From the NCBI GenBank assembly GCA_054772095.1, contig BAAGAE010000030.1, forward strand, positions 87,335 to 151,334: a stretch of 64,000 nucleotides of DNA, given 5' to 3'. Of the stretch, positions 9,103 through 64,000 are shown in pieces. Numbering within the stretch: position 1 is the stretch's first letter; every line of letters begins with the position of its first letter. The notes beneath the pieces are model-generated. The model worked only from the letters and a program-made list of their open reading frames with translations. It was not told the origin of the DNA and made no database searches. The position numbers were made by a program, and so were the translations under genes. The stretch is from Chamberlinius hualienensis. Taxonomy: Eukaryota.

Positions 9103-9234
9103 TTGGATGCAAATACTCAGGAGGACGTAGGTGGCGCTAGTGACGACAACGCTAGAACCGAGGACGAAATCTGCACGTTAAACGCTTTCAACGGGCCTCA
9201 GCTTAGCGATTCCAGGGAACGACTCAGTGACGAA
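9103..9234 (+). CDS. AUTS2: AUTS2/fibrosin-family protein, internal coding exon (phase 0-0), peptide LDANTQEDVGGASDDNARTEDEICTLNAFNGPQLSDSRERLSDE
   Basis: Acceptor ttttacag ends at 9102 and donor GTAAGT sits at 9235. The open frame ends ...SRERLSDE, matching human AUTS2 ...SSSRERLSDSS. Confidence 0.7.
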
Positions 9235-9569
9235 GTAAGTACATCGTGATTGCGTAAATTATTACCCAAACCACTCAATCTTTTACCGCTTTTTTTTCTT
9301 TCCCGCATTTATCTCTCGTTAATTACAAACTAAATACACACATTTGTAATTGATTGCGTTCTCAAATAAGATTATCGATCAACACCTTAATTAACGCCGG
9401 GTTAAGTTATCACTTTGCAGCTTCCTTTACTTTTGCGTGTATTAACGTCAACTGTGACGTCCGAAGGAACGCCATTTAGCACTTGTTTAACTTTACGCCG
9501 TGTACACATTTGCCATTATTAATGATTTTAACACCTTTGAATTCTAATTAATTTTATTTGAAAATTTAG

Positions 9570-9605
9570 GTAAGCAGTCGGCCCAGCTCAGGACGTGGTT
9601 ACATC
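9570..9605 (+). CDS. AUTS2: AUTS2-family micro-exon (36 nt), peptide VSSRPSSGRGYI
   Basis: Acceptor tttag ends at 9569 and donor gtaagt sits at 9606. In-frame peptide matches human AUTS2 SSAPSSLGTGYF, which sits directly between the RERLSD and CDSDSD segments. Confidence 0.65.
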
Positions 9606-9876
9606 GTAAGTGTTAAATAATTTATTAAATTTTTCTTTAAATAAATTAACCTATATTATTACTCGTTTGTTTTTAAGTTTTTTTTTTTTGTGTGTGTGAA
9701 AAATGTCGACACCAACGCCCATCACTTTTTTTCTTTCTTCGTATGTTTAGAATTTAATTTAATATCGATTTGCTGCTGTGAAAGTTGTACAATATTTTTG
9801 TTGATAAAAAAAAAAGACAGAAAATCGTGACATAAATAATGTCAAGCAAGCTGGGACCTGATTTTTTTTACATCCG

Positions 9877-9888
9877 GTGGCGCCACCT
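9877..9888. promoter_or_regulatory. 12-bp GC palindrome GGTGGCGCCACC (a CTCF-like GGTGGCGCC core on both strands)
   Basis: Direct reading. This is a rare GC-rich 12-mer in an AT-rich context. Confidence 0.4.
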
Positions 9889-11397
9889 CTTGTCACACGC
9901 GTTGCTCCGCCATTTTGCTCTTATCAAATTGAAATGTCAAACAATTCCCTCAGCACCAACATTTTCTTTTCTCTACGTTTTCTTCCATTTCTTCTAGTTT
10001 TTATCTGTACTTGTGTTTTTATTTTATTTTATGTTTTTTTTCTTCTTCCTATGGCAGGAGAGTGAATTGAAAAACAAACATGCAAGCAGACAGAAATGCA
10101 TGTCGTCAAATGTTTCCGCCATGTTGCTCACTACTTTCAGCCTATATCGATTAACAAATTAAATAACAAGAGTTTAAGGAGGGGAAAGTCATTACTGGGA
10201 TGTCATGCATAACATCATTTGAAGTAGTTTCACTCTTAATACTTCTAATAGAAAAATAGCTAGATTTATCAGCAGTAAACACGAACCTATTGACGTTCAG
10301 TTGAGTTTAGCCCAAATGAATTTTGAATTTTTTTTTTATTAGATTTTACATAATGACATGGGTATTAGCAGGCAGCATGGGCACTTGGCGTGTAACTTAA
10401 TTAAGAAGTTGTTTGTGTTTTTTAAAACTCTCTTACAAATCGTTTATTCTCCACTTATAAATTCCTTGTTTGTGTCCTTTTCTTTTATTTATGTTTACCA
10501 CCCTACATTACTTTCCTCCTCCCACATCACTATCTCTTAGACTCCACCTCCCCCCTTCGACATGTTTTATTTATTTAGCCAACTGTTTTCTTTTTCTAAC
10601 TTCCCCAACAACATCACTTCTTAGCAAATGTGAGCACGCGTCAAAAGTTGAATCGCTACAAGCACATTTTTAACTATTTTGACCGCGTTGGCAAGTGACA
10701 TAAAAGGAGAGAGGGACGTGGTGTGGGGATGGGGATGGGCTGAACCGGGTTTTAGTTGGGTGAGTGGGGGTAAAGTGAGTACTGTAGAGTGAAGTAGAGA
10801 AAAGTGGGGTTTTGAAAAATACTTCAATTCGATATAATGTTGAACAGTGAGTCGTCAACGCCACTGATGAACAAACGACATGTATATAAGTTAAGGAGTG
10901 TGGGGAGGAGAAGGGGGGGGGGAAGAGTAGACATTTTGTATATAGGGTTGGAAGTTTGAGGGGTGTGAGTAAGGAGAACGAGGGATTATATTTCTTTTTA
11001 ACTTCACACTACACCACTGAATCGTCTTTCTTTAAGGATGTAAACTTTTGACGCTTTTTGCTTTGCTCTCATATTTCTTTACTTGAGGTTTTTTTTTTCT
11101 TTTTCATTCCCTTCTCTCCCTCATTCCTCTTATTCTCTTTATTAATACACACTGAAAAAAATTTCGTGGTCTCTTCTCTTCCACCCATACCCCCGTCAGC
11201 CTATTTCCAACCCACACGACACACACTCAAATAACAAATGTAACAGCAGCAGCTGCCAAAGATAAACACAAGATTAATATACCCCACATTCTCAGCCTCC
11301 TCATTCACCCAAAACACAACTTTCAACCCCTCAACCAGTCTGATAACACCAGGCTTTATTTTTCTTCTGGCTTCAAATAATAAATACTCGTTTGTTG

Positions 11398-11405
11398 TGA
11401 CGTCA
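11398..11405. promoter_or_regulatory. Perfect CRE TGACGTCA
   Basis: Direct reading. Confidence 0.5.
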
Positions 11406-12897
11406 TAAGTGGTTTTTGACGCTAATTGCTCTGAACAAGTTTGTCAGTGTGTTTGATATTAATAGGTTGAATTTATTTACGATGTGACGAGAGATGTGAA
11501 TGCGCTGCGGTTGGATGAATTGAGGGCTGCGGAGAGGAGGAGGGGGTAGGGGAACAGCTATCGTATATTAATGCTAATATTAACAGGTGAATGACGTAAT
11601 TAAAGAGTGTAAATATTTATGGCTAACTAATAACGTGAAACAGATGCACTACATTTTTGCAGTAATTTGGAGCAGAGACAAGGTAAGGCCTTGTTTAACG
11701 CGTTAAATTCCCTCCAGAGAAATATCGTGTAATAAAATGCCAACTAACATTTACATGACATGGACAACAGAAAAACGAGGCCAATGTAATGTATTTATGC
11801 TGTGGGAAGTTCCTTCAGGTAGCTTATTAAAGTGACCTTAACAGGTTTTTGGATTAGTGGCGACTGTTAAAAGGTCTTTGTATGGTCATCTGGTGACAGT
11901 TTTAATGGTAATTGCCATTTTTAGTTTTGGTTTTTTGACTGACACGCAATTTGGATATCTGAACTTGCTAATTAACATTATGTTTGTGAAAAGATTATAA
12001 TTTTCTACTTCAACAGGTTGGTGTGATGCAATGCAATTGGCAGTAACATTTTGACATTGACAGAAGTTAAATTAGTTGAAAAAGTGGTTTAATTCGCGAG
12101 AAGGACGTTGATACTCTATATTCCAGTTTCATAAACATTAAACAAGTTATTAAATAGTAATTAAAATAAATGGCGCGATCGTGTAATTTAATTAGCGGCG
12201 TTAGCCAATTGCTTGTAATATTAGTCTTTGCTCCAGTATTACATAACTTTCTTGACGACATCCAACAATGTACAGTACTTATACGGTATAATGTACAAAA
12301 GCTCGACGAAATGATGTTTTTATAACCTTAATATAATATACTGGAGTAGTAAATCGTTCTATAGGTTTCCTTTTATAAAAGGCGATTCATAACTAAGTTG
12401 TCAAATGTTAGGGGAATATTATATACAGTAGAGTTGGTAAACGAATACGGATAAAAATGAAATTTTATATGAAAATTCAACGTTAATTTTCAATGCCATG
12501 TTTAGTGATGTTTTCACAAGAACTTCCACGTCTTATAGGTTTTATTTGCTGCCTGGTAACATGATATCGTGTCACAATAAAATGAAAATGTTGGTTTAAA
12601 ATAAAAAAATCAGGAATAATTACGGTGGATTTGTTATTTTACAGTAAGTTTGTTTGGCAGTAGAATGAACGAAATCTGACGGCTAGGGAATTGTTACAGT
12701 ATATGTCACGTTTCAATTAACCTTTCGTTTGAAAATTGAAAGGCAGAGGTCAACCTGTGTTAATTTGAATATTAAATTGAGGTCAACGTTAAGGGGTCAT
12801 AAGCAACACTTGTATCAAAGTTTACAGTAAAAGTCAACATAAACAAGCCGCTGAAGTACATTACCATAATATATCTGGGAATAAATACGCTCGCTAA

Positions 12898-12905
12898 TGA
12901 CGTCA
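12898..12905. promoter_or_regulatory. Perfect CRE TGACGTCA
   Basis: Direct reading. Confidence 0.5.
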
Positions 12906-13296
12906 ATTGGCGAGTCATCATTAGCAGATGTAGTTCAAATATTTTGTAATAAATCAGCGTTTGTATATTACATGGCAGAAACTTTTCGAGGTTAAGTTAC
13001 GAGAGAGGGGGAGGGGGAAATTAATTTAGAAATTCTTCAAACAGTATTCGAAGTTAATCTTTTGAAGTTTAATCTTTCTTTTCTTTTAAACTGTGTAATA
13101 GAAATACGTTTTGTTAGGTTACAGTTGTTTTGTGCCCTCTATTAAATCTCCATAGAAATTCAAATAAAAGCCCCAACGGTGGCCAAATAGATAATAAAAA
13201 CAACCACTCCTTTAAAAAATATAAACAGTATGAAAAAAAAAATTATTTTGTGTACTAAGCTGTTGTGTTATTTTAGTACAAGTCAAAGTTAACCAT

Positions 13297-13313
13297 CAGG
13301 CGCCACCTACCGG
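13297..13313. promoter_or_regulatory. CTCF-like motif on the minus strand (CCGGTAGGTGGCGCCTG)
   Basis: Matches the CCASYAGRKGGCRSY consensus. Confidence 0.4.
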
Positions 13314-13442
13314 TTGTTTAATGTGAAATTAAACGAAAAACCAGCTTGAAATAATGGGAAGGCAAGTCACGACCTCTGTTCTCGCAGTTGGGGAGATTTT
13401 TTTTTATTTAGCTTTTTTTTCGCTTTTGGGGAGGCAAATTTA

Positions 13443-13460
13443 ACGCCACCTAGTGGGCAG
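13443..13460. promoter_or_regulatory. CTCF-like motif on the minus strand (CCCACTAGGTGGCGT)
   Basis: Matches the CTCF consensus at about 13 of 15 positions. Confidence 0.4.
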
Positions 13461-14720
13461 AAGGAAATTACCCCTTCTTTTTGGTCATGTCTTTCGTCGG
13501 CCATTTTTATCTCAAACGTTTTCTTAAGGAAAAAAAATTTTTTTTTTTGTTGTAATGTTTAAATTGGACTGCAAACGTTGAAAAAGACAAAAAAGTGCCC
13601 TCCTGCGGTGAGCGTTGTTTGGGAACAAAAATGTTACTAATAATCGGACAACTTTCGTCACCTCCCAGTACAAGTTTTCTTATTTGGTTTCACGAAGTAT
13701 TTCCCCTTTTATTTCATCCACCCACTTTTTTTTTTCTCTCTCTCTATTTATTTATCTATTTTTTTCACTCTGTGGTTATAGTAACTTTGGCGTCAAAGAA
13801 AAACAACCTATAATTGGCACAGGAGAAAAATGTTAATAATGTAAGGTGGTTAGTCGTCACGTTTCTCTGTAATTTAGTAATTAAATATCAATCAAGAAAT
13901 TTAAGAAAAATTAAGGGAAGTTAAGAGGTTTTTTTAAAATATTTTATTTAATGGAGTATAACATGTTGTCTTATAATTTTTAATCATGGCTAATTATAGT
14001 TCTCGTCTGATGATGTTGAAGGAATTTTTTAATATTAATTTAATTAACTTTCAACGCTATAGCCTCGTGATCATTATGTTAGACTGTTTTTTTTACTTAT
14101 TTATTATAAAAAGCATCTTTTAAAGATAAATTGAAACTATTTGCTGTTATTTTTGGGCTGTACTTGTCGTTCTTGCAGCTAATTAAATGATATAATGACG
14201 TAGATTGACGTTGGGTGGCGCCATTAGCACACTCCCACTCTTTATTCCGCAAAGATTTTTTAATTTATTTGAATGTAAAGTAATAATAACTTCCGCTGGG
14301 TATTTATCCTCTTTCTACTCCTCCTCCCCATCCCACTTACAAGTCAAATTGCAAACAGATGAACTCGAGCGTTTAATTGCGTCCAATTTGTCGGTTAGAC
14401 AGCCGGAAGTTCAACCGTTAAGCGTATCAGCTGCCTTCTGGTGTGGGAATTACAAATGGTGGTCGAAAATTGATGTTGAAGTAATTTACAGACACATTAA
14501 ATGCGGTTAAATTAACGTATATATCGCCTTTTGTGTTTGGACGGAGGAGGGGAGAATTCGTATGAAAGGATTAGTTTTAACTAGACAATTAATATTTTTT
14601 TAATTTGTAGGAGGGATATTTTTACTAATGGTAGACTAAATCGATATTATTAACGTACAGGAAGTACGCCACTTTATTTAATTTTAATTCAGAAAGAAAA
14701 ATGCGATATACGTTTTTAAA

Positions 14721-14742
14721 ATATATATATATATATATATTT
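14721..14742. repeat. (AT)11 microsatellite
   Basis: Direct reading. Confidence 0.9.
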
Positions 14743-16890
14743 ATTTTTTTTAACTTTATTTCAGTACTATAGAAAATTTAGTACGGCGAAATTTCCTTTT
14801 ATAATCTTCCGGTAACATTATATTTTCCTCATGCGTGAATTTTCATTTTTTTCTTCTTTTTGCATAATTTTGAGAAAATAAATTTGTTGTTAAAGGCAAT
14901 TACTATATTTAAATAAAACATTATAAATTTGTTAACACTTGAACTCAGAATTTTTTTTAATTTGGCAATTTTTGGATGAAACCTATTGATGGCAATTAAA
15001 ATAATTACGTGATGACCATTAAGCGTATCTTTAATGTGTCTGTGTAAACTTGTAAAGTATATCAACGACGTTAGCTATTATACTAGTATTGCTTTTCCAA
15101 TAAAAAGTATATCAAGTTTTCGATGCTTACTTTACACATATCTAAAGGACTATGATAATATACCGCTAATGGTGAAGTTTAGGTTGATTACTCTTAACAT
15201 TTTCTTAAACTAAAGCAAACAGACACAGTTTTCTTGAAGTTAAAAAGTAAAATGTCTTGGTATAAATACACATGACATGCGTATTTTCTCATCAAAATAC
15301 TGTATTTAAAAATGTGAAGGAATTTAGATAGTTTATCGATATTGAAGCTACACTATTGCGAAATATGACCTAGCCCCCCCCCCCCCTCCAGCTTTAGATC
15401 CTTGCTACGCCAATGGGCGTGCAACTACTGTATACCATTTGGAATTTTTAATACAACAAACAACTTAGCTTTCAAACAATAGTTTTCTCTGGTAGTCAAA
15501 ATAGTTAAGTTCTGAGAAAAATTGTATTATATTTTCTATATAGTACTTTCTATGAAACTAATGTAAACTTCACTTTCTAGTGTGCGGCTCTATTATCCGT
15601 TATCAGCCTAAGTTATTGATTATGGTATCTTTCCAGTCGATTTCAATATTGTCAACTCGACTTTATTTGGTGTATTGATTATCACTAGTGATATATTTCT
15701 TGTATACTTGAATGTTTCACTGTGTAACATATAACAGTACTCTACGGAATGTTGACTGTTTCGCTCCAGGTGTACGTGAAACTATTTCAGAAGAGTCGTG
15801 TGGTTAATATACAGTACAAGTATCTGATTACTAGGGTCTGGATTTTTATGATTATATCTAACTGGCATACGTTGTAGTTATATATAATTGTCTAGTCGAT
15901 TATGATAACTATTAATATATTATTGTTGTTTTTTTTTTTATATACCATTTTACAAATTCATGCCCTACTTCTAACCAATTTGTGGTGCACTTAATGCATA
16001 GTTTGAAATATTAAGAAATACGATAGGAAATGTTTTTGTTCTGTACTAAAATGTTGCAAATGTGAGAAATATGTGAAGCGATTATAATGTCGATTACTTG
16101 AAGTGCGATCTTTGTCGAGGATTAGTTTACGGGCAAAACAAAGATCACTGTAAAGTAAGTTTGAATTTGATTACTTCTAGGTAGTTTAGTATGTATTTTA
16201 ACATTGAACTAATTGGCATGACATTCATACAGACATATCATAAATTTGATTATTTTTTATTATCTAAAATAAAATCGTGTGTCAACCACGCCGTCGCAGA
16301 CGTCACACGACGTCATCTTGAAACACTTCTAACATGTAAAATTAAATAGTTATAATTGAAATATAATTATGCAACTACAATTGTTGTACCGTACAAAGTC
16401 CTTTTTTTTTTGAACAGAAAAATAGGCATGACTCGTTTTGTTGCGAATTTTGACTTATTGCGGTGATCCATAATCCTATCCTATAATAACTTGAGGCATG
16501 TCGGTAGTCGTAAATGCTCAATTTCGTCATTATTACAGATTTAACGCAGTAATTGGCCATTTTATTGCAACAAATTCACCGAATCTAGTTATAAAACGTC
16601 AAATGGCTCATCCATTTCCAATGCTGATTATTGAATAAGCAGCACTAGCACTTCATTGTTAAGTTTAACAGCCAATTCTCCGGTGCTATTAAATTTGTAT
16701 AGATTTTTATTAATGGGATCCATTGTATACTATACAAATGTTCTTACTAGGTCACCATAGAACCCAGTTGTGTTTCTCTCTATACGTAAATATTGAATAA
16801 TGATATTTAGTATTTGCATTTAGCTTTAAAATGCTGCTTGTGAAGCTAATCAATATGTTTATTGTTGTTTCCAATCGAAGCTTTTATCTC

Positions 16891-16904
16891 GGCAGGTGGC
16901 GCTG
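16891..16904. promoter_or_regulatory. CTCF-like motif GGCAGGTGGCGCTG
   Basis: Matches the CTCF core. Confidence 0.4.
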
Positions 16905-17021
16905 AACCATTTCTATTCAACCCACGAGTATATCATGCGTTTAATTCGTTTGTTAGGGCGTTACCAAATAGGGGTGGGAGTTGAAAAGAGTGAAGACAGT
17001 TTACACCACCGCTACCAACAT

Positions 17022-17035
17022 CGATATATCGATAA
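17022..17035. promoter_or_regulatory. 14-bp palindrome ATCGATATATCGAT containing a DRE-type TATCGATA
   Basis: Direct reading. The motif is the DREF/BEAF-32 CGATA class. Confidence 0.4.
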
Positions 17036-19029: not shown

Positions 19030-19056
19030 TGTGATAGTGAAAGTGAAGACGATCAG
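19030..19056 (+). CDS. AUTS2: AUTS2-family micro-exon (27 nt), peptide CDSESEDDQ
   Basis: Acceptor ttttag ends at 19029 and donor GTAAGT sits at 19057. Matches human AUTS2 CDSDSDQEE, and the phase is compatible with the flanking exons. Confidence 0.7.
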
Positions 19057-26657: not shown

Positions 26658-27297
26658 ATTCTCCGGGTGACGTCCAACCACCTACATCAAACACATCTGA
26701 AGTTAAACGCTGACCTTTTATTGACTTTTGAATAACGTGTCACGTGAATATAAAGCGCCTTCTGGTGACCATCAACCGTGTTGTTTGGATTTTATGGTTT
26801 TGTGTGTACATTTTTTTTGTTGGTTTTGATGTGACACGTGATAGTGGGCGTGTGTGTGTGTGCTGAGGGGTCGATTACAGCACGTCTCCCTCGGGGGTTT
26901 AGTCGTATTAGTGTTTGTGATGGGTGATGGGTAGGCGTGGCTTTGAAAATTGATTGCGATGCGCTATTGGATTGGCAACATCGCTTGTAAATCCAAAGCT
27001 TAATGAAAAGTGACAACACAGCTTTCATGCTCTCTGCAACGCATGATGGGATATATACACCTCTTTCCTTTTCCTCATCTCTTTACATCATATCTCTTCT
27101 CCCACACTCTATTCTCTCTTTTCGATTTGAGATGACTACATTAAATAAATTGAAAAGTGATTTAGCATTTACTTAAAGGTGGAGTGAGAGCGTTAAGTGA
27201 CGGGGAACGTTCCAAAAGTTAAATTTGTCTGACTATTCATTATTCAGAAGACGTATTAAGAGAGAGCGTGTATCGATTGCTTGGGTTTCTTTTATTG

Positions 27298-34992: not shown

Positions 34993-35023
<31 letters not shown>
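34993..35023. repeat. poly(T) homopolymer, about 31 nt
   Basis: Direct reading. The listed ORF 34819..35025 ends in FFFFFFFFFF. Confidence 0.95.
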
Positions 35024-42500: not shown

Positions 42501-43746
42501 GTGATATATTGGAGTGTTCTTTTAATGGTATAAATCACAGTCAGTAGTTGCACTTGTTTAATAAATTGTTTAGTGTAAATATATTCTCTGGAGCTCAACT
42601 TTGGTGAAAGCAGGGTGTTTGATAAAATAATCTTCTAGTTTTTGATCCTCTCTCTCTCTTTTTCTTAATCCGTTTTTATTGTGTTGCTTTAGGCAATCCG
42701 ATTTAATCCTCGCAACGCTTTCGGCGGTGCGTCTACCGTTGATAAATGGCCGATAGATGGCGCATTTTCTCAGGAGGGGGATTTGTTGCCATCGTACAAA
42801 TTAGTCGCTTCCGAGGTAGCGCCACAACCGACACTTTTGAAACCATCGAGGGAATTTAGTTTTCGATATTTAATCCGATGTTTTTGAAAAACACAACACC
42901 TCTTCAGCTTAGCAATCTCAAAACACAAACACTATACCTATCACACATCTTTTTAATAGTATTAATAATGTCGGATGGAGACTAAGGGAAAAAAGAAGAT
43001 GATTGACAAAGCGTTTAAACGATCGTTGTCAATGGATCGACCATCTTATTTGACACATTTATACAGCTTCGTTGCATTGCGTTAAAGCGTTTTTTTATTG
43101 CCACTTGTGGTAATGGCGGAGAATATATATATTTTTTTCTTTTAATTTAATTATGAATGCCTTAAGATGTCCGCTTAAAACGATTAAGTGTACGTGTCGA
43201 GGCTGGCTATGATTTTGATTGCGTTATATTATTTATTTACCACTTACCGTCATCATTCACCGCTAGGAGCAGCGTCTTTTTTTAACCGTCACTTTTTGAA
43301 ATATTAATTTTAACCTTAAAATGGCTGCTGTTACTTTTATGCGGTAGAAATGTGCAGCCGTTTAAGTGTTATGTATTGTGTCTCGTAAATAAATGATAAA
43401 TTAATTCGCTGTACAGCAAACGCTTACAACTAATTAATATTTGATCAAGGTGCAACATTAATTATTTATGAATTAATTTGTTAGCCTATTTATCCATCTA
43501 AGCTTCCTTTAACGCACTACTGTTCTGCGAATGTCATTAAAATGTAGTCTTAGATTGAAAACTCATTTTCTTCCATTTAGTTTGACGTAATGTCAATATT
43601 TTTTAAGCAAATTTTTGTGTAAAGTGCCGCGGAAGCTTGATGTCTGTTAGGGATTTATATTTGTCAGCATATAAATCAGTTGCAAGTACATCGAAATCCC
43701 TCTCCTCTCTATCTGTCTATTGTTTCTGACGTTGACAGTTGGCTTG

Positions 43747-45172: not shown

Positions 45173-46437
45173 CTAAAATGTCGATGTGTAAAAATATGGT
45201 GGAATCAATTTCGATAGGAATTACAGTACATATTATTCAGAAGTGTTATTGACTTTTTATAGTTTGATTTTGTATCGAATTATGACTACCCAAGCTAATT
45301 GAATTTCCAGACTATGAAAGGTCTATCGCACTTCTGATTAACTTCTGCGATTAATGGGTTTCCACATAAAATTTGCTTTGGCACCTCGATATGCACCTTA
45401 CAGTTGACATCCTAATGTACTATATATGAATCATCTAGTAGGTTGGATACTCCATTTTTAGTTAACTATCTGTGCAGACGTCTGTACTTGTGTATTTTTC
45501 AGGCATCTTCGAGTCACTTGATGAGTTTAAGTGGATCTATTTTAAGAGTTCTGTAGCTATATTTTTATTTATATAGAAGAGATGCGGTTTTTTTATGTGA
45601 TGTTTTGACTCGTGATAGTTGACATCATTGGTGTTGATGGGAGGTTAATGGGTCGGTTGCAGTTCACTTAACTGACAAAGCAGATTTTCTTTTATTTTTA
45701 TGTAATTTAAACTGACGCCTTATTTTGTCGTCATCCGCTTTTTCTGCTCTGAACTAGCTGGCCCCTAGTCTCATGGTACATTATTAGAGAGGAAACCCAT
45801 TCTACAATTTGCATTGAGACTTGTTTGACTTTAAACTGCGCAATCACGTGACGCTGCACGACATCAGTTTATAAAGATGTCTACATCATATATGTATACG
45901 CAGCTGCTTTCTGCTTCCTGTGCTGCTTCCGGTTTCCGTTTGAGCAGATATATAGTGGCGTTAGAGATATGAAGAGCGTGATGGTGTTTTCCACGCTGTG
46001 GAATTGTTAAATTTTTTGGTGCTTGTAGTGTTGTGGGGGGCTGAATAATGTAGTGAGGTTGTTGTGATGGGGAGGAGATGTGTATATATATATATATATG
46101 AAGTAGGAGCTGAAGAGAGTTTGAGAGAGAAAAAAAATATATAGTTTCCCGCCAAAATCGATATCGCGAGGGTTGTTGGCTTTTGTTGTTTTTCACTCAG
46201 TCGCTCTCTCTAGCGTACATTTTGCACGCTATCAAAAACGCAGCGGTAGCAAACTAGCAAAGCGCGACTGGCGTTTGAGAGCAGACAACTACAGCTCTTT
46301 ATCGCTATCTTTTGACGCTCCCTAGAGGGCGTCGCAATCGACGAGTACCTTTTTGACTCGCATATCAATTCCCAACACCACCCCATTTCCGGTTATTTAA
46401 CAGGAGCTCTTTTAGTTCCTACTCCGGCTTTTGATCG

Positions 46438-46438
46438 C

Positions 46439-46469
<31 letters not shown>

Positions 46470-46471
46470 AT
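46438..46471. repeat. C18 homopolymer followed by (AC)8
   Basis: Direct reading. It lies inside a CpG-enriched segment. Confidence 0.9.
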
Positions 46472-46527
46472 ACTTTTCTCTTTTTCCTGCTAATTCGTCT
46501 GCCACTTTTTTCAAAGTGGACGTGTAC

Positions 46528-46544
46528 GCGCACCAGGTGGCGCT
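46528..46544. promoter_or_regulatory. Near-consensus CTCF-like motif CGCACCAGGTGGCGCT, inside a CpG-rich segment
   Basis: CCACCAGGTGGCGCT matches the CCASYAGRKGGCRSY consensus. Confidence 0.5.
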
Positions 46545-47530
46545 TTTGCCTTGTAACTAGCCTTTTTAATTCGATACGCGATGCTCGTTACGCAACTTAA
46601 TCACGTAATAAAACCATTTCGCTTCTTTTCCGTTGGCAAAACAACGTTTCATTTACCGCCACTGGAAAAAAAAACTTAATTTCCACTACAATTTCATTGG
46701 GGGAACGCAAAAGGAAAAGTAACAAGGAAAAAAAAATTTGGGAAGTTTAGTGAGAAAAAATTTAATGGAAATTTAAAGGAGACAAAAAAAATTTGTTTGT
46801 GTTTACTGCGCAGGCGTAGTGAAGAATTTTATGACTGTTTTATCAGCTGTTTACAAAAAGAGAGAAGCGGTGTTGGTGGTCGTTTGACGCTGGATTAACG
46901 TTGTTAATTTGTACGCATGCATGACAACACTAGTAAAAGAAGGGGAAAATGTTATAAAAAATTGTTTTTGCGTGTAATAGTATGTGTGTGTTTATTTGCG
47001 TGAGGGATATATTCATTATAGATTAAAATAAAGATGGAAAGGGGGGAAGAAGGTTGGCATTATTTTAATATATGTACCTACAGTATATATCTATGAAGAT
47101 GGCGTTTATTTGTGTGTGTCTGTGGGAGGGGAAAGATGTGATGCGAGGGCAATGTAATAAGTTCGTTGATGCGTAAATGAAAATGATCCTTATTACATAT
47201 GTCACCACGCCAGCTAATCTCTTTTCGCTCATAAAAAAGGTACTTGATCGTCGACAGAAGGGCCATTTGGTTGATTATCTTAGGCGAGCATTATGCTATC
47301 TCACCCCCACTGCCATTTTTCTAATTCTCACATCATTTTTTTTTTCTTCTCCCTCTCATTTTTCTTACATATTTTTTATACACACAAAAAGATGTTGCTT
47401 CTATCAATACACAATTCCCTTAACTATGTGGCTAAACCGCTCTTAGCCTCTCTCACTCTCGCTCTTTTATGTGGCCTTACGTAATGTCCTTTGCCATTTT
47501 TACATTATTCATGAGTTCGGTAGTCACCGT

Positions 47531-54600: not shown

Positions 54601-55157
54601 AATTTTATTACTTAATAAATATGTCTAATGAATGAACCTGTCAAGAGTACAGTATATTAATTTAAAAGTATGAAGCCATCTTTTGCGATTTATCGTTTCG
54701 ATACTGCTTATATAAATTTCAATCTATTTGAAATGAATGTTTATTTACTTATTTACGCAGCACTTTTTATCTCTCACTCTCTCTATTTCTGCCTTGTTCT
54801 TTATATTTTTATTAGCGATTGAAAATCGATCGATCGTAAATTGTGTGGTGAGTAGAGTGTGAACGTGGCTTCTTTATAGGGCCAAGGGGGAAAGTAGGAG
54901 TGGAAATTGGAAAGTGTGGGGAAAACTGTTAGGTTGGTGATGGTTAGATTGAAGATGGTTGGTTGTTGGGGGGGAGTGGGGGATAGAGTGAGGGAGTAAG
55001 GCGTGTGTGTGAAAGAAGGGGGAGGGTGGCGAGAGTATGATTTATGTAGATGTTAGCAATAAAGATAAATTGCTCTCCACTATCGCATAGATTGGCTCAT
55101 AAATTCTCAGTTAACTGCTGTGTAGAGGGCGCTTCATTCATCTCGTGCGTCTGGGAG

Positions 55158-55347
55158 CCGCCATTTTCATCTCTCGTTTTTTTTTATCTCATTTTTTTTA
55201 AATACAAATATAAAGGTCGATGTTGGATGGATGAAGGTTTTTATTAGGATTTGATGCGCGATTAAAATGGAAGGAGGAGAGCTTTTATTCGTATTTGTAT
55301 ATAAATAAATAAATTACACGGTTTTTTTTAATTTATTGCATTTTTTT

Positions 55348-55389
<42 letters not shown>

Positions 55390-56689: not shown

Positions 56690-56900
56690 TGGTTGACGAC
56701 GAATAGTGGGCGGTGGTATATAGTTGATGAAGAAATGTTTTTCGCGCGTCGTAAAAAACAAGATGGCGTCGATAGGAAATCGGGTCGCGACAAAAATGCA
56801 TCTCCATATTTCCACGCCACATTTTATGACTTTTATACGTCGTCGTCGAACATCGTTTAACGCTCGATTTTACACGATTTTCAACAGTCATCTCATTCCA
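56690..56900. promoter_or_regulatory. CpG-enriched segment with an AAGATGGCG (YY1-type) core, about 600 bp upstream of exon 57489. Candidate internal TSS region.
   Basis: cgcgcgtcgtaaaaaacaagatggcgtcgataggaaatcgggtcgcgac...cgtcgtcgtcgaacatcg. Confidence 0.3.
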
Positions 56901-57488
56901 TCTTTTTCTTCTAGCTATCTAACACGCATGCGTACTAAAATTTTAATATTTCTATTTACTTTTTTATTTGTTGGACGGTGGCAGCGATGATATTGAAGTT
57001 GATGGAAGTAAACGACTTTGTTTTGATTTGAAAAATAATCGAATGACAGTCAACGTCATCTATACTTCCCTTGAAGTGATTGAATTTCACTTTGACGTCT
57101 GCGTTAAAACATCCACGGATTTTCTCTTGACAACTGGCTGACAACTTCTTTCTTCCCTTTCTACTTGTTTTGATATGTGTAATCTATTAGTTTATATTGA
57201 TTACTTTGGATTCCATTGGAGTTGTATCAAATGTTGTATACTGTAGAGTTACTAATGGACTTCATGTCGAACGCTGTTTCTGCATGGCTAGGCCTAATAT
57301 TATGCGCCAATTTGGTTGTCGTTATTACTGTATATTGACCAAATTAGTTTCCATTTTACTTTTTGAATTTAGCTACTTTAAAACTTGGTGATGTGATTTT
57401 TGACAGTTTAAAATTAGTGAAAGATGTTTTTTTATTAACAACTTTATTATTTTGTATAATTATTCTAACTATCAACTTTTTTTTACAG

Positions 57489-57534
57489 GTGTCTGACACT
57501 GGGTCTGACCTTTTCACAACGGCAGCTCCAAAAC
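57489..57534 (+). CDS. AUTS2: AUTS2-family exon (46 nt, phase 0-1), peptide VSDTGSDLFTTAAPK(R)
   Basis: Acceptor ttttacag ends at 57488 and donor GTAAGT sits at 57535. Matches human KASDASSEKLFNT. The 1-nt carry-over completes CGT with the next exon, keeping the long Ser-rich frame open. Confidence 0.75.
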
Positions 57535-58270
57535 GTAAGTAACATTTTATTGTTGTTTTTTTTTAACGAATTTTATATGAACTTATACCTCATATAACTA
57601 TTTATACACTGTATAAGATCTACTCCATCTCGCTCTCTTTCTCTGTCAATTTGAGTTGTTGATGATAGCTTAAATGGTTCTGTTTTGAGATGGCGTTGCA
57701 TTCAATTAACTTGTATGTCATGAACATTGAATAGCGTTTTCTGGGGAGAGGGACAAAAAAAGTTAATGGGATGATTTCTTAAACGACGCCGTTCATAATT
57801 TTCTCGCTCGATTAGACGAGTCTAGATGTTGATGATGATGATAATGCAAAACATTTTCAACCCCTTTCTCTTTTCTTTTGAGGATCTGGATTTTTTTATT
57901 ATTATTTCCTGGAGGCATTGTTGGCGCGCGAAACCGACACTCGATTAGGCAATTTAATATTGTGAAAAATGCCCTGACATTAAATAAGATTTACGATTCA
58001 ACCAAACCCTCCTCAACTCTCGAATATTGTAGCGATTAGTTCAACCATCATTCTATAGGTATTTCTATAATTTATTACGACTGCTGTTCTAAATATACAC
58101 TATATAAGTTAGAAAATCTGCCGCTAAACAGGCGTCACTTTCCGTCTTCATTTGCACTCTGTTGCTTTTACGCACAGTTTATTTTTCTTGAAATAGAAGA
58201 AAACAAACTGTACACTTGTAGTTGTTTGCTAGAAAATCAGACAGCCTTTTTTTTTTTTTTACGTGGATCA

Positions 58271-58278
58271 TGACGTCA
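58271..58278. promoter_or_regulatory. Perfect CRE aTGACGTCAt, about 480 bp upstream of the large exon at 58755
   Basis: Direct reading. Confidence 0.5.
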
Positions 58279-58754
58279 TTAAACGCAGCTGTTAACTTAA
58301 ATCAACGCTGAAAATAATTTAACTTTTTCTAATAACGCTGAATTCTGCGTCTCTAATAGCTTTTAATTCGAATGCATATTCAATTTCTGTATTAATATTA
58401 TTTATTGTAGGCATCAACGTTATTTATGTTTTCATGATAGACGCGTTTGGTAATTTGCGTAACGGGTTGTGATGGTTTAAAATGATTTTAGTTTTGTTTG
58501 TTGGTAACTATGCCGAGTGTAAACAGAGGATGTTTTAGCTTATTTATAGATTTCAATAGACTTTGTGTTTGTTTGCTTTTGTTATATTGCCAGAGGAAGT
58601 TTAATTTATGATTCTCAGTTGGTAAACATTATCACTAAAACAATTTTTTATCTTAGCTCAGTCAACGGATTGCTCGGTTTATTTAATTAACATTGTTGTT
58701 TGTTTGTTTTTTTTTAAATTTAATTTTTTTTTAATTTTTTCATCTCATTTACAG

Positions 58755-59982
58755 GTGAAACCGCGAATCACAGCAACAACAGTTACACGCTTCATAGTGG
58801 AAGCAGTAGGAGTAATTCTCCTATTTTTCCGCTAAACCACACCGTTAACAACAGTAATAGTATCTGCAGCAACAGCAGCAGCAGTAGTAGTAGTAATAGC
58901 GGAAGTGGCAGTATTTGTAGTGTGACGCAGCAACGTCCTTCTTCGACGTCATCAATTCAAGTTATTCCTCGTCACGTTAACAACGTTACCTCTACAAACA
59001 ACGGAGTGGCCCCACCAGCGTCACCTCCCTCCTCCATACCACCGATCTACCACATAAATAGTAATAGTAATAGCAGTAGCAGCGTCACAACGACATCTAG
59101 CGGTGGATCCAGTGGCAATCACAACAATAATTGTGGTGGCGGTGGGGACGTTAGTGGCGTTTCCACCGCCATATTGGGAAATGCCAGCGTGACTGTTAAC
59201 GCAACGCCTGCCGCCACCACTACAATTTCAACGACAGTAACAACACCGTTAACGGCATCTCCTAGTCCTGGCTTAGGTTTAACGGTACAGTGTGTAACAG
59301 GAACTACTGCATCGACGCTGTCATTACGCAGCGTAACTCCACCTGTTTCAACTGACGGAAGTCCAACGAACGTTTTGGTTCAATCGCAAACCACACCAAC
59401 GCCGTTGTTATCGTCACCGTCGTCTTCTCCTGTTGTATTGAACGTTAGGCAGACCCCACCGCCTCCTCTACCTCCTGCTGCAGCCGTTACACCGGTTACT
59501 AGTACCACTGGAGTCACGTGTATTACACCGTCACCCAGGCCTCGCAGCCCCAGGACAAGTACTCCATCGTTTTATGAAAGGACTAACAATAACAATAGTA
59601 ATTCGTCAGCTGCATCAGTAGCCACACAACAGCGTCACACGCCGACTTCATTACCGCCTAATTATTCTTGTAACGCTTGCACAACTCCTCATTCTTATCA
59701 CCCACCTCCATTACCGGTTCCGCTTCATCCTCACCATCACTCCCTTCATCACCAGCATCATCAACTTCATCATTCTCATCATCTTCAACCAACTACTTCA
59801 CCCCCAACGCCGCCTGTATCAGCTGTGACCACAAGTCCAACAACCAGTTCAGCAGCCGTTACAACAAGTGTAACGAGCAGCACTTCGTCGTCCTCCTCTT
59901 CAGTAGGTAGAGCTGTGACACCAAATTTGCCTACTTTGAGAAATCACAGCCCGTCCACGAGTAGGGATACACAGAGTTACAG
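58755..59982 (+). CDS. AUTS2: AUTS2-family large Ser/Thr/Pro/His-rich exon (1228 nt), RETANHSNNSY...RDTQSY(R)
   Basis: Acceptor tttacag ends at 58754. The frame runs through the whole listed ORF 58922..59986 and is open upstream to the acceptor. Donor AG|GTGACT at 59983 joins in frame to the exon at 60772. The exon is low-complexity S/T/P-rich, as in the human PR1 region. Confidence 0.8.
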
Positions 59983-60771
59983 GTGACTAAATTATTTACT
60001 AATTAACTAAAATTACAGTTGTGTAAATGAGACTCAAATCTATACATGTAGGAAAATATTATTGTAGACAAACAACTCTATCCATCTATATATTTCGTGT
60101 TAAAATCAATTAAATTGTATGAATGTTTACTGAAGATTTAGTTTTTAAAATGCGGTTGAATTGCAGTTGCCAACTTTGTACGTGACTTCTGTGTTACATC
60201 TTAGGCCATTTAAAATCTCAAAAGACGTCATAAAAGCTTTTTAGTAGCTTAAGTGGCTATATCTGCCTTTCTTAAACTTGCATGACTGCATACTTAATTA
60301 ATGTTATAAATGACACATAGTTGCTTACTTTATGAAATCATAAACCTAGTTTTGATATAGTGTGAATAGTTTACGATTCGTTTGTGGTTATAAAAGCTGA
60401 CCGAAATCATTCATTGGACATACTTGAAGGAGTTTATAAACACAAGTTAAACGATTTAGTCGAGTCGTCCAAAGAAAAAAAAACGTTTAGGGATTAAAAT
60501 TGAAATGTTTAATATAAACAACTGCTTAATAACTAGGAAACTGTTTAAAAATAGACATTAAGGAAGTAATGTAATTGTTTATTTTGTTAAAATATGTACG
60601 GGCAGAGTACTATCAAGATTTCGGATTTATCTTACTTAACCAGGCGCTTCCTTTTCTTAATTGTAAATTGTTTGACATCTATAAATAGCGGACGATTATT
60701 ATCACTGACTTTATTTGAAACAAAACGGAATTAACAAACATTGTTTTGATTTGTTATCTTTACTGTTATAG

Positions 60772-60948
60772 TAGTAACGTGAGCAGTTTGAGTAGAAGTA
60801 GCGTGACGCCAAGCAGTGCTGGTGGAGGTAGCAATAGTTCTAGAGCTGAAAGTAACAGTAGCGCTAATACGAGTTTTACCGGGATCGCCTTTAATCCATC
60901 TGCGAATCTTCCTAGTCTGTCTTTTTCAAAGGCTTCTACTTGGGCTAG
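60772..60948 (+). CDS. AUTS2: AUTS2-family exon, (S)SNVSSLSRSSVTPSS...SKASTWA(S)
   Basis: Acceptor ttatag ends at 60771 and donor GTAAGT sits at 60949. The frame equals listed ORF 60746..60952 and is continuous with the previous exon via the split codon AG|T. Confidence 0.8.
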
Positions 60949-61017
60949 GTAAGTTTTAATGCAAATATATATGCCGCATGATAAATATCTAATGTTATTA
61001 TTGTTTAATTAATTCAG

Positions 61018-61367
61018 CTCGAATCCAGCGTTACATCCTGGTACTCACCTTCCGCCTGCTCCTAGACCAACACCACCTCCTCCCGGTCCTCCTCCGCCTC
61101 CCCCACCCCCTGGTCCAGCTGTATCTGGACCTACAACTCAGAACTTTACCATACCTGCACTTCATAATAGTCATCACTCATCGCCATTTACACTGCCTAC
61201 ATCTTCTAGTTCCGCCAACGTTTCCTTACATTCACATCACGGCATGTTTGCCCCGCCTATTCCGCCACCATCGGCTACTCTTTCGGCAGCCGCTGCCGCT
61301 AGTTTGGCTGGTCTCCCTGGAGCGTCACCGAATCCGTTTGGTGCTGATCTTTTACTACAGCAAGGGA
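61018..61367 (+). CDS. AUTS2: AUTS2-family proline-rich exon (PPPPGPPPPPPPPGP...GADLLLQQG)
   Basis: Acceptor aattcag ends at 61017 and donor GTAAGT sits at 61368. The frame is open across the whole exon, and it ends in phase 1, which fits the next exon. Confidence 0.8.
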
Positions 61368-61436
61368 GTAAGTGTAAATATAATTTTAAAAAATTTATCG
61401 CTTTAAGAAATTAATTTTTTTCAACTGATTTGGCAG

Positions 61437-61636
61437 ATCAAGCAGATTTACTTCGGAGAGAATTAGACAACCGGTTTTTGGCTTCTCAAGATCGTTCTAT
61501 GCCCATTCCTCCGCCTCCATACATGAGAACAGAGATGCACCAACATCAACATCAACATACTCATTTACATCAACACAGTCATCTAATACCGCCAACGTTA
61601 GGCGCTTCATTGGTTCCAACTCCTGCCACACATTTG
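61437..61636 (+). CDS. AUTS2: AUTS2-family exon carrying the PY motif (PPPPY) and His repeat ([15 protein letters not shown])
   Basis: Acceptor tttggcag ends at 61436 and donor GTAAAT sits at 61637. Peptide [49 protein letters not shown] matches human DILRQELNTRFLASQ...[26 protein letters not shown]. Confidence 0.9.
61540..61590 (+). repeat. Coding (CAT CAA)n His-Gln repeat, the hallmark AUTS2 His-rich repeat
   Basis: CACCAACATCAACATCAACATACTCATTTACATCAACACAGTCAT translates to [15 protein letters not shown]. Confidence 0.9.
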
Positions 61637-61714
61637 GTAAATTAAATTCCCATATTTATTGATCGAGTCTAACGATAGCATCTTTGGATTAATTATTTAT
61701 TGCAATTTTTACAG

Positions 61715-61759
61715 TTTGACAAATTGCCGAAACTTGATGCTCCATTTCATCGTCAAACG
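61715..61759 (+). CDS. AUTS2: AUTS2-family exon (45 nt), peptide FDKLPKLDAPFHRQT
   Basis: Acceptor ttttacag and donor GTAAAT. Matches human FDKYPTKVDPFYRHS. Confidence 0.9.
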
Positions 61760-61829
61760 GTAAATAATTTGTTTTTTGGTTTGATTTAAATAAGTTTAAA
61801 TTGCTATTTTTGCTATTAAATTTTTGCAG

Positions 61830-61943
61830 TTAAGCTTGCCAGGATTTGCTGGTCTGTCTCCTCTTCTACCCCACCAAGCCAGTCCAGTGGCATCATCAAC
61901 ACCTTTTGGACCGCCAAACATGGCTGCGGCTTTTCAACCGAAG
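61830..61943 (+). CDS. AUTS2: AUTS2-family exon, LSLPGFAGLSPLLPHQASPVASSTPFGPPNMAAAFQPK
   Basis: Acceptor tttttgcag and donor GTATTG. Matches human ...GPFGSLQGAFQPK. Confidence 0.85.
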
Positions 61944-62014
61944 GTATTGTTTAACTTCGGTTCTCCCATTACACATCACAGATTTTTTAATTTTTTTTTC
62001 TTTCGAATTTATAG

Positions 62015-62044
62015 TTGACCCCACTATCAAAAAACAAAACAGTT
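62015..62044 (+). CDS. AUTS2: AUTS2-family 30-nt in-frame micro-exon, peptide LTPLSKNKTV (possibly alternatively included)
   Basis: A strong polypyrimidine tract precedes acceptor ttatag, and the donor is GTAAGT at 62045. Length is a multiple of 3, and the flanking exons join in frame with or without it. Weak similarity to human HTLLQKD. Confidence 0.55.
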
Positions 62045-62107
62045 GTAAGTGTTGAGGTTGCAATTGAATTTATCAAATGTTCGCGTTTTTAATGGTCTGT
62101 CTATTAG

Positions 62108-62306
62108 AAATCTGGACGGTGGTGTGCAATGCATGTACGTATTGCGTGGGAGATATACAACCATCAACAGAAGCAACAGGCTGAAGCTCATAAGAGCAAC
62201 GCCTCAAAATCAGCAGATATGGGTCGATCACCTAGTCATTTATTTCCTTCCTTTCATCGGCCTCATCATGATCTTGCTGGATTAGCCAACTCTATCATAG
62301 GACCAG
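62108..62306 (+). CDS. AUTS2: AUTS2-family exon, [29 protein letters not shown]...HDLAGLANSIIGP
   Basis: Acceptor tattag ends at 62107 and donor GTATAC sits at 62307. Matches the most conserved AUTS2 block [22 protein letters not shown]. Confidence 0.9.
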
Positions 62307-62374
62307 GTATACTCGTTAAAACAAATATTTTTAGATATTTATGTCAATTAACCTTTATTGTAAAACTTAAGCAG

Positions 62375-62461
62375 GTTCCAGTCATCCACGAACACCATTT
62401 GAAGCGGCTGCGGCAGCTCAGCATCACAATAGCTTTTTAAGCACTGGTGCAAGTCATTTAG
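62375..62461 (+). CDS. AUTS2: AUTS2-family exon, (G)SSHPRTPFEAAAAAQHHNSFLSTGASHL
   Basis: Acceptor aagcag ends at 62374. The alternative AG at 62370 gives an immediate in-frame stop and was rejected. Donor GTTTGT at 62462. Matches human [24 protein letters not shown]. Confidence 0.75.
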
Positions 62462-62603
62462 GTTTGTATTGTTTTTAAATATTATAGCAGTTAGGAACTA
62501 GTTAATATTGTTTACGAGATGATTATGCAGTAGACATTAAACGTGTTTTGTTGTATGATTGATAAAGTTAAGGAATAATATTAAAACAATTTTTTATTTA
62601 TAG

Positions 62604-62687
62604 TTCCTGGCATGTCGCCGTTTGTGCGACCAGGGTACTCTGGTTTTGGCGCCTCAGTCAGTGCCTTTGGTGGCTTGGGTTCCTTAG
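62604..62687 (+). CDS. AUTS2: AUTS2-family exon, (V)PGMSPFVRPGYSGFGASVSAFGGLGSL
   Basis: Acceptor ttatag and donor GTAAAC. Matches human ...NNAFGGLGSPSL. Confidence 0.8.
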   Translation, partial: FLACRRLCDQGTLVLAPQSVPLVAWVP

Positions 62688-62757
62688 GTAAACTTATTGC
62701 TTTGTAAAAAAAAGTTTTTTTTGGAAATTTTCTATAACAATAATTTTGGGTAAACAG

Positions 62758-63193
62758 CTGCAGGTGGAGGTTTATTTGGCTCTGGGCGAGACCTACGAGA
62801 TCTTTCTGGAGTTGGTGGATTATCACCTTCTCCGGCTCATGAACAATGGAACCGTCTTCACCGTACTCCATCCTCATTTCCTACAGCTCCTGCTCCTGGA
62901 GGTCCATGGTCGCTGAAAGCGGAAGTTGAACGTGATAGGCATCACTGGGAAGAACAAGATAGAGATAACAGAGAAAGAGAACAGCGAGAGAGAGAACGGG
63001 AAAGGGAACGCGAACGCGAACGAGAACGGGAGAGGGAAAGGGAAATCGAAAAGGAAAAAGAAAGAGAACGAGAAAAAGAAAGGGAACAGCAGAAGAAAGC
63101 GGCCGCTGCTGCCGCGGCCGTAGCTGCAGCTGCTGCAGCAGAAGCAGAAAAACGAGGCAAAGAACAGTATGAAAAATCCAGGGAACTAGAAAG
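62758..63193 (+). CDS. AUTS2: AUTS2-family exon with [16 protein letters not shown] motif, an (RE)n dipeptide repeat and a 14-residue poly-Ala tract
   Basis: Acceptor aaacag ends at 62757 and donor GTAAAC sits at 63194. The frame is open for all 436 nt. Matches human [23 protein letters not shown]. The exon ends in phase 2 (AG), which joins in frame to G at 63369. Confidence 0.85.
62967..63140 (+). repeat. Coding imperfect hexamer repeat (GAR CGN)n giving (RE)11, then a mixed-codon GCN run giving A7-V-A6
   Basis: The translation of exon 62758..63193 reads REREQREREREREREREREREREREIEKEKEREREKEREQQKKAAAAAAAVAAAAAAEAE. The Ala codons are heterogeneous (GCG, GCC, GCT, GCA). Confidence 0.9.
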
Positions 63194-63267
63194 GTAAACC
63201 AGTTAACATTAACATTTTTCGTAAAATGTTATAACAATATGTGTTATTGGTGTTATGGACATATTAG

Positions 63268-63308
63268 GGAACGAGAACGGGATAGAGAACTTGATAAACA
63301 AAAGAAAG
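63268..63308 (+). CDS. Candidate 41-nt cassette or poison exon inside the last mapped intron, (R)ERERDRELDKQKK. Inclusion shifts the frame and produces a stop within about 10 codons of the next exon.
   Basis: Good acceptor atattag|G and donor AAAG|GTACAA. The segment continues the RE-repeat reading frame of the upstream exon, but 41 nt is not a multiple of 3. Confidence 0.25.
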
Positions 63309-63368
63309 GTACAAAATGATACTATTCCTTTTAAGTTTTATGCATTAATTGCGTTTTATTTGTGATAG

Positions 63369-64000
63369 GGATCGGGAAAACAGATCTCATAATAGAAGTT
63401 TAGCATATGATGGTCGGAACGGTGATGATGCAGGTAGCAGGACAAGAGATCGGTCGATGGACCGGTTAAAAGATAAACGTGATACAACACGATCTCCTCT
63501 AAGAAATATGGACTTGCCACGACGGGGTGAGTCGATGTCATCGCTATCAAAAAATGACAGTGCCTTCGACAATATCCTCAATTCCTCTTCATCCACTTCA
63601 TCAACCCCATCCTCTTCTTTGTCTTCTATGAAACCTGGCGGACATGGTGAATCAGCGCCTAGTACACCCTCCACAACAATTCGGATTAAAGATGAACCCA
63701 AAAAAGACGACGAACCACTTTTGCTGCGAGGAGGGGATCGTATTCAACCGCCGCCGCCTCCTCAAACTGTTGATTCGGTGAGAAATGACCATATCACATC
63801 AGCAATGTTAAGTGGCAGCTACCTCGCTCGTGCTCTACCGCCCCACGGTCTTGCTATGCTTGAGAGGACTCGATTGATGGGACCGTTCGGTCTACCACAT
63901 CCAATGGCGGGGATGGAAAGGCCTCCACCACCACTTACAATGTGGGGTGATTCGTTTCGTGATCCATACCGAACTTTAGACTACGCGCATAGAATGGAAT
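63369..64000 (+). CDS. AUTS2: AUTS2-family C-terminal region exon (continues beyond the window), ...LERTRLMGPFGLPHPMAGMERPPPPLTMWGDSFRDPYRTLDYAHRME
   Basis: Acceptor gtgatag ends at 63368. The frame is open to the end of the window with no stop. Matches the human C-terminal block [44 protein letters not shown]. Confidence 0.85.

Follow-up and report, generated by a model that had tools for sequence, protein, structure and literature searches.

The 64,000-nucleotide (nt) stretch of the Chamberlinius hualienensis genome analysed here (the window; assembly GCA_054772095.1, contig BAAGAE010000030.1, positions 87,335 to 151,334 of the forward strand) almost certainly holds the greater part of an invertebrate gene, presumably single-copy, that is orthologous to the AUTS2 / FBRSL1 / fibrosin / Tay-bridge family and belongs to the protostome type termed 'aAUTS2p'. 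On the plus strand, between 9103 and 64000, 15 constitutive exons and one 30-nt cassette exon join into one reading frame free of stops, 1,264 codons long or, when the cassette is included, 1,274. The visible portion begins at the counterpart of human exon 3, ends within the last exon and spans about 55 kilobases (kb), with the frame still open at the window end, position 64000; the stop codon lies beyond the window, as presumably do the start codon and the conserved regions nearest the N-terminus.

Family membership is carried by the match of the spliced C-terminal part to the Pfam family Auts2 (PF15336), which scores 128.2 bits against a cutoff of 23 (E = 6e-37) and covers profile positions 1-211 of 218; two exons match the same profile singly, with 55.3 and 37.7 bits. 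A homologue search over 5.8 billion proteins found 162 homologues; among the best 120 of the 162, PF15336 is found in nearly all, and those with an informative name are without exception AUTS2, FBRSL1 or fibrosin. The top matches among those listed are a transcript (45% identity, 89% of the query) and sequences from horseshoe crab, beetles, termite and cricket, and the word-index search reached up to 54% identity over shorter stretches. The order of the named matches, together with motifs in common with a beetle, points to a probable arthropod source. Platypus AUTS2 shows 38% identity over 305 residues (E = 1e-32), in an alignment that covers the PPPY motif, the HQ repeat and KPGKWCAMHV. The original prediction had assigned the locus to the AUTS2/fibrosin/tay-bridge family and had named the lack of a significant family match as an outcome that would refute it; the Pfam and platypus matches, together with the names of the homologues, bear the assignment out. 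An exhaustive search with the last exon returned two matches, the better one with 59% identity (P0121), which runs about 174 residues past HRME. A repeat-free core of 258 residues retrieved nothing at E <= 1e-10 despite the known homologues, which is a limit of the tool and not evidence.

One gene per protostome, with eleven conserved regions in a fixed order, has been described under the name aAUTS2p (Sellers et al. 2020, PMC7732068). Regions 3-11 of that scheme are all present in the window in the same order, the PPPPY motif is retained, and Regions 5-7 lie on separate exons (61437-61636, 61715-61759 and 61830-61943). Regions 1-2, a basic N-terminal stretch and the EEDVIDGFA..SF..LE block, were not found in 1-9102 by motif search, and every tblastn match of 1-9102 with the N-termini of the Limulus, Mytilus, whale and pigeon proteins had E > 1; both regions presumably lie upstream of the window. 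The further 5' exons that had been suggested for 1..9100 or upstream of the window did not materialize in the searches of 1-9102, and the statement that the 5' exons, start codon and 3' end are outside the window or undetected agrees with the missing Regions 1-2 and the open frame.

The likeness is closest to the aAUTS2p proteins, for example those of Camponotus floridanus and molluscs, with which the product shares PF15336, the order of Regions 3-11 and a PPxY motif followed by an HQ repeat; these proteins are single-copy in each protostome and belong to a size class of about 1,250-1,550 residues (PMC7732068). A difference is the 30-nt cassette exon, which occupies the slot of vertebrate exons 12-13, of which protostomes are said to lack a counterpart (Sellers et al., PMC7732068). 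With vertebrate AUTS2 the gene has in common the PPPY motif and His-X (HX) repeat, KPGKWCAMHV...HQQK, the RDPYR tail and an RERLSD...GYF/I-CDSxS...SD-SS--LF block divided over micro-exons, whereas identity in the core is 38% and vertebrate AUTS2 has an extra intron within the KPGKWCA exon and a longer exon 12-13 region. FBRSL1 and FBRS share the domain and the micro-exon boundaries (36, 36+30 together and 46 nt, from bat and dog isoforms), but are without the PPPY motif that is present here (PMC7732068). Since FBRSL1 and FBRS are vertebrate-specific duplicates, the gene is co-orthologous to AUTS2, FBRSL1 and FBRS. Drosophila Tay bridge (CG9056) is the fly orthologue of the same ancestral gene, but has about 2,486 residues, no PPPY and Regions 5-7 in one exon (PMC7732068), in contrast to the conservative layout found here. 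The family, its protostome orthologues and the motif order are already published, and the locus adds one member.

All exons have an AG acceptor, and a GT donor is present wherever an intron follows (GTAAGT at 7 of the 15 donors). The exons have a guanine-cytosine (GC) content of 49% versus 34% for the introns, and the window as a whole is AT-rich, as had been noted, with about 34% GC. From 5' to 3', and with the cassette excluded, the introns measure 335, 9,424, 38,432, 1,220 and 789 nt and then 68-175 nt; a 164-nt intron is divided into 71 + 63 nt once the cassette is spliced in. The 12 exons after the 1,220-nt intron, the cassette counted, are packed in a 3' cluster of 5.2 kb. The sixteen exons in one open frame of the original prediction are recovered only when the cassette is counted, while its micro-exons of 36, 27 and 46 nt and its 38-kb intron after the CDSESEDDQ exon prove to be exact. 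The exons and related features are the following:

9103-9234, + strand: exon 1, 132 nt, phase 0/0, ...NAFNGPQLSDSRERLSDE; equivalent of human AUTS2 exon 3, acceptor tttacag, donor gtaagt; aligns with residues 63-86 of Lingula P0054
9570-9605, + strand: exon 2, micro-exon, 36 nt, phase 0/0, VSSRPSSGRGYI
19030-19056, + strand: exon 3, micro-exon, 27 nt, phase 0/0, CDSESEDDQ; after the 9,424-nt and before the 38,432-nt intron
19057-57488, + strand: intron of 38,432 nt that follows the CDSESEDDQ exon
57489-57534, + strand: exon 4, micro-exon, 46 nt, phase 0 in and 1 out, VSDTGSDLFTTAAPK plus 1 nt
58755-59982, + strand: exon 5, 1,228 nt, Ser/Thr/Pro-rich; corresponds to the PR1 linker, vertebrate AUTS2 exon 7
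60772-60948, + strand: exon 6, 177 nt, SSNVSSLSRSSVTP...SFSKASTWA; both junctions gap-free in transcript L001
61018-61367, + strand: exon 7, 350 nt, proline-rich stretch and HHGMFAPPIPPP (conserved Region 4); tblastn with P0003, P0005 and P0054
61437-61636, + strand: exon 8, 200 nt, PPPPY motif (WW-binding type) and (HX) repeat
61715-61759, + strand: exon 9, micro-exon, 45 nt, phase 0/0, FDKLPKLDAPFHRQT
61830-61943, + strand: exon 10, 114 nt, phase 0/0, ends AAFQPK
62015-62044, + strand: cassette micro-exon, 30 nt, phase 0/0, LTPLSKNKTV
62108-62306, + strand: exon 11, 199 nt, most conserved block, start of the Pfam Auts2 domain
62375-62461, + strand: exon 12, 87 nt, phase 1/1, SSHPRTPFEAAAAAQHHNSFLSTGASHL
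62604-62687, + strand: exon 13, 84 nt, phase 1/1, VPGMSPFVRPGYSGFGASVSAFGGLGSL
62758-63193, + strand: exon 14, 436 nt, phase 1 in and 2 out, (RE)n/Ala-rich stretch, end of the Pfam Auts2 domain
63268-63308, + strand: exon-like element, 41 nt, flanked by tattag and gtacaa, (R)ERERDRELDKQKK
63369-64000, + strand: exon 15, phase 2 in, open at the window end, ...SRSPLRN...NDSAFDNIL...LERTRLMGPF...RDPYRTLDYAHRME

In tblastn with eight homologues, all constitutive exons from 61018 on (exons 7-15) are matched, except for the 45-nt FDK micro-exon, which is covered by intron-spanning high-scoring segment pairs only. Exon 11 alone gives a Pfam match with E = 1.2e-14 and reaches up to 62% identity in tblastn. 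Further upstream, the start (ETANHSNN) and end (SRDTQSY) of exon 5 are kept in contig L005, and the end is also kept in transcript L001 and, in phase 2, in the beetle gene. The junctions ...DTQSY/SSNVSSLSR... and ...SKASTWA/SS... (the slash marks the exon boundary) are continuous in L001, a transcript contig of another species. The micro-exons (36, 27, 46, 45 and 30 nt) encode short conserved linear motifs. All of the AUTS2 motifs of the original prediction were located on the plus strand in the order given for them, with minor departures from the predicted patterns (RWCAMHV versus KWCAMHV, HTHLHQH versus HTHQH and DAPFHR versus DPF-R). The motif positions are:

9214-9231, + strand: RERLSD (motif search)
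9591, + strand: GRGYI (motif found)
19030-19047, + strand: CDSESE (motif search)
57492, + strand: SDTGSDLF (motif found)
61508-61522, + strand: PPPPY (PPPY match at 61511-61522 plus the preceding Pro codon)
61511-61560, + strand: PPPY and adjoining repeat (motif search)
61715, + strand: FDKLPKLDAPFHR (motif found)
61929-61943, + strand: AFQPK (motif search)
62847-62870, + strand: WNRLHRTP (motif search)
63958-63972, + strand: RDPYR (motif search)

The three N-terminal micro-exons were compared with homologous peptides across their junctions. The micro-exon-junction peptide aligns with the Lingula AUTS2 homologue without gaps (30/54 identical, E = 9e-14) and with the Mytilus homologue with one 3-residue gap (E = 5e-11). 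The chance control took all AG/GT-flanked stretches of these three lengths (36, 27 and 46 nt) from the window and scored them by their match to the Lingula peptide. Each proposed micro-exon comes first for its length, with 33 (36 nt), 35 (27 nt) and 32 (46 nt); the highest values reached were 19, 13 and 14 among 30 shuffles, and 2, 8 and 10 for the minus strand. The counterpart of the 27-nt exon reads CDSESGDER in Lingula and CDSESGDDR in Mytilus. A search with the N-terminal peptide of 111 residues found no homologue, the word index giving just 2 candidates, and the 46-nt micro-exon was not found within 1.5 kb upstream of the large exon in contig L005.

The boundaries of these micro-exons were compared with those of other animals through isoform differences and the literature only. 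The bat FBRSL1 isoform P0111 is without the exon ending ...RDQLSD, and the next exon begins SSAQAVSGRGYS (12 residues, 36 nt), while another bat FBRSL1 isoform omits exactly SSAQAVSGRGYS and CDSESDGDDK (36 + 30 nt). In the dog FBRSL1 isoform P0046 a boundary falls after ASVGSEKLFAPAADK, that is, after 15 residues plus 1 nt, which gives 46 nt as in the window. The vertebrate-like micro-exon order that had been proposed is thus matched by the 36, 36+30 and 46 nt implied by the FBRSL1 isoforms, the middle micro-exon being 27 nt here, as implied for Lingula and Mytilus, versus 30 nt in mammalian FBRSL1. In human AUTS2, Region 3 (residues 199-240, 42 residues) spans exons 3-6 (PMC7732068). The dog isoform P0046 joins ...EKLFAPAADK to DHELLRQELN, a junction which shows that splicing can leave out the equivalents of exons 5-7 and stay in frame. 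Exons 5-7 of the window (58755-61367) sum to 1,755 nt (585 codons), and phase 1 is common to exons 4 and 8; with whole codons removed and the flanking phases equal, their joint skipping would preserve the frame. The Limulus RefSeq model P0122 (XP_022245698.1) has the EEDVIDGFAILSF block and is without the RERLSD / GRGY / CDSES / SD-SS-LF block; the gene range of this orthologue is 282 kb, and its micro-exons have probably been missed by automatic annotation.

It is well known in general that slowly evolving invertebrate genes have intron positions in common with vertebrate genes. Homologous proteins of a beetle (L002), cod (AUTS2, L003/P0101) and Capitella (L004) were mapped onto their own loci and placed in a joint alignment with the predicted product. 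In the 3' cluster, 8 of the 10 intron slots that separate constitutive exons are no more than 4 alignment columns away from a cod or Capitella intron of the same phase. The tenth slot, in a low-complexity RERE stretch, has phase 2 in common, and its position is not placeable. With the cassette counted, the 3' cluster has eleven introns, as the cassette splits the AFQPK/K-G-WCA slot in two. The shared introns are:

Intron before FDK: phase 0, common to all four genes
Intron after the FDK micro-exon (45 nt, versus 54 nt in cod): phase 0, common with cod
Intron after AFQPK: phase 0, common with cod and Capitella
Intron before K-G-WCA: phase 0, common to all four genes
Intron at the end of the K-G-WCA exon: phase 1, common with cod and Capitella
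Intron before ..SPF.RP: phase 1, common to all four genes
Intron after FGGLG..: phase 1, common with cod and Capitella
Last intron (low-complexity stretch, loose alignment): phase 2, common with cod and Capitella

The exons between these introns are similarly alike. The 54-nt cod exon FDKYGPKLDNSF... has the same place and phases as the 45-nt micro-exon; exon 12 (87 nt) has counterparts of 78 nt in cod and 66 nt in Capitella with identical phases; exon 13 is 84 nt long both here and in cod, with the same phases; and the counterparts of exon 14 in cod and Capitella likewise lead from phase 1 to phase 2. The beetle keeps 4 of these introns and has lost the rest, and its single FQPK / K-G-W intron coincides. 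Human AUTS2 has 19 exons in 1.2 Mb, the first 6 set apart by long introns and the last 13 compact (PMC8750789); in the window, widely spaced exons give way to closely packed ones at the same exon. Together, the shared positions and phases support a vertebrate-like exon architecture that appears to have been conserved and inherited, in line with the deep conservation of exon structure proposed originally.

A parallel gain of introns, which would make the likeness to the vertebrate exon structure a coincidence, is very improbable. Such a history would account for the lengths that differ (27 versus 30 nt, 45 versus 54 nt and 199 nt versus 72 + 133 nt in cod) and for the absence of six of the introns from the beetle gene, but the eight slots of the 3' cluster agree in both position and phase with cod or Capitella, four of them also with the beetle, and the three N-terminal boundaries coincide with the boundaries of mammalian FBRSL1 isoforms; intron loss in the beetle is the simpler reading. 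Still less credence can be given to a highly diverged orthologue of the dipteran Tay-bridge type in place of the conservative protostome type. Tay bridge is a member of this family and also carries PF15336 (PMC7732068), but it has Regions 5-7 in one exon and no PPPY (PMC7732068), whereas these regions occupy three exons here and PPPPY is present, and no Drosophila or other dipteran protein is among the best 120 of the 162 matches. The Tay subtype, as defined by Regions 5-7 in one exon, no PPPY and about 2,500 residues, was also tried as a class for the locus and rejected on account of the three exons and PPPPY.

It is likewise hard to see the locus as a decaying, non-functional AUTS2-family pseudogene. 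This reading finds its best argument in the 41-nt element at 63268-63308, which is 42 nt long and in frame in contig L005 and is contained in transcript P0001. The window copy is one A short (CAAAAG versus CAAAAAG in L005), so that its inclusion would shift the frame and lead to a stop 11 codons into the last exon; also, neither a start nor a stop codon is seen in the window. Against this, 1,274 codons over 16 exons are free of stops, all splice sites are canonical, the conserved blocks are all intact and in order, GC differs between exons (49%) and introns (34%), and the frame is preserved when the 41-nt element is skipped. Either the assembly has an error in this homopolymer, or the element is a decayed exon or a poison exon that shifts the frame.

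Several points nevertheless weigh against a functional aAUTS2p-type orthologue as modelled here. The 41-nt element is conserved and would break the frame if spliced in, and neither gene end falls inside the window. The searches brought up no close relative, identity being at most 59% (last exon, exhaustive search) and 45% over 89% of the query (word-index search). Exon use follows predictions from homology, above all for the 30-nt cassette, and all functional statements are carried over from vertebrate and fly relatives.

The cassette exon at 62015-62044 is probably alternatively spliced, judging from its distribution among homologues. It has a counterpart in genomic contig L005 (5114-5143), a 30-nt exon encoding MTPLVKSKTM, and occurs in the arthropod proteins P0001, P0002 and P0003; Limulus P0004/P0122 and beetle P0005 lack it. 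Its slot, phase and length equal those of the 30-nt exon ahead of KPGKWCA in cod AUTS2 (L003, 10533-10562). We tentatively consider that the cassette could correspond, in arthropods, to the region of vertebrate exons 12-13 known as the 'mTayD' subdomain, but regard this as rather unlikely. If true, the mTayD subdomain would be ancestral to bilaterians and would be an alternatively spliced micro-exon of the kind that annotation pipelines tend to overlook. In the AFQPK-KPGKWCA interval, the lophotrochozoan proteins P0054, P0025, P0010 and P0070 (Lingula, Mytilus, Octopus and Capitella) have a stretch of the type H-x-x-Q-L-L-x-S-L-R-E-R, for instance HAQLLMSLRER in Lingula and HHTQLLMSLDRQK in Capitella, where it is encoded by a 138-nt exon. 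Because this stretch resembles ...PHTLLQKDPR of vertebrate exon 12, the exon 12 region may be no vertebrate novelty.

By analogy with its relatives, the product would be a largely disordered nuclear protein and the signature subunit of a variant Polycomb complex, PRC1.3/5, alongside PCGF3/5 and RING1. Through its His-X repeat the protein would bind the acetyltransferase P300/CBP, which is predicted to turn the complex into a transcriptional activator of developmental, mainly neural, genes, and the PPPPY motif may serve as a docking site for WW domains. Mammalian AUTS2, with P300 and CK2, converts PRC1.3/5 to a transcriptional activator, and its HX repeat (residues 525-542) is required to bind P300 but can be dispensed with for joining the complex (bioRxiv 10.1101/2021.03.30.437620). 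The variant PRC1.3/5 of the fly is defined by its subunit Tay (PMC9451159), and Tay bridge negatively regulates EGFR/Erk signalling (PMC3861119). As the HX-type repeat, PPPPY and the most conserved block are kept, the same role as in the relatives is the simplest expectation. No solved structure of a relative was found.

The locus is a clean, hand-curated case in which micro-exons of 27-46 nt, 0.3 to 38 kb apart, were recovered from motif order alone. The model could be used as a template for correcting the annotation of AUTS2-family genes in arthropods and as a starting point for finding out which of the micro-exons undergo alternative splicing; outside annotation its importance is small.

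The introns and 1-9102 contain no Rfam family or tRNA, no long repeat and no open reading frame with a Pfam domain. Within the 38,432-nt intron no nested gene was detected, its longest open reading frames being without a Pfam family, and a bacterial promoter scan, irrelevant to a eukaryotic locus, gave counts at chance level. Several short islands in 1-9102 and the introns peak at 46-54% GC per 150-nt window over a background of about 33%, those at 46151-46600, 26751-27000, 54826-55100, 42676-42875, 10601-10825 and 1851-2075 peaking at 49-54% GC. The three GC-richest islands (46151-46600, 26751-27000 and 54826-55100) have stops in all six frames. We speculate that the GC islands may act as enhancers or other regulatory elements or as internal promoters, like those described for vertebrate AUTS2. 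CpG-rich stretches, a (CA)n repeat and a C14 run occur in the island at 46.1-46.6 kb, and the large intron also contains a (TC)17 microsatellite at 55351-55385 and a T31 run at 34993-35023, both of which are ordinary low-complexity sequence.

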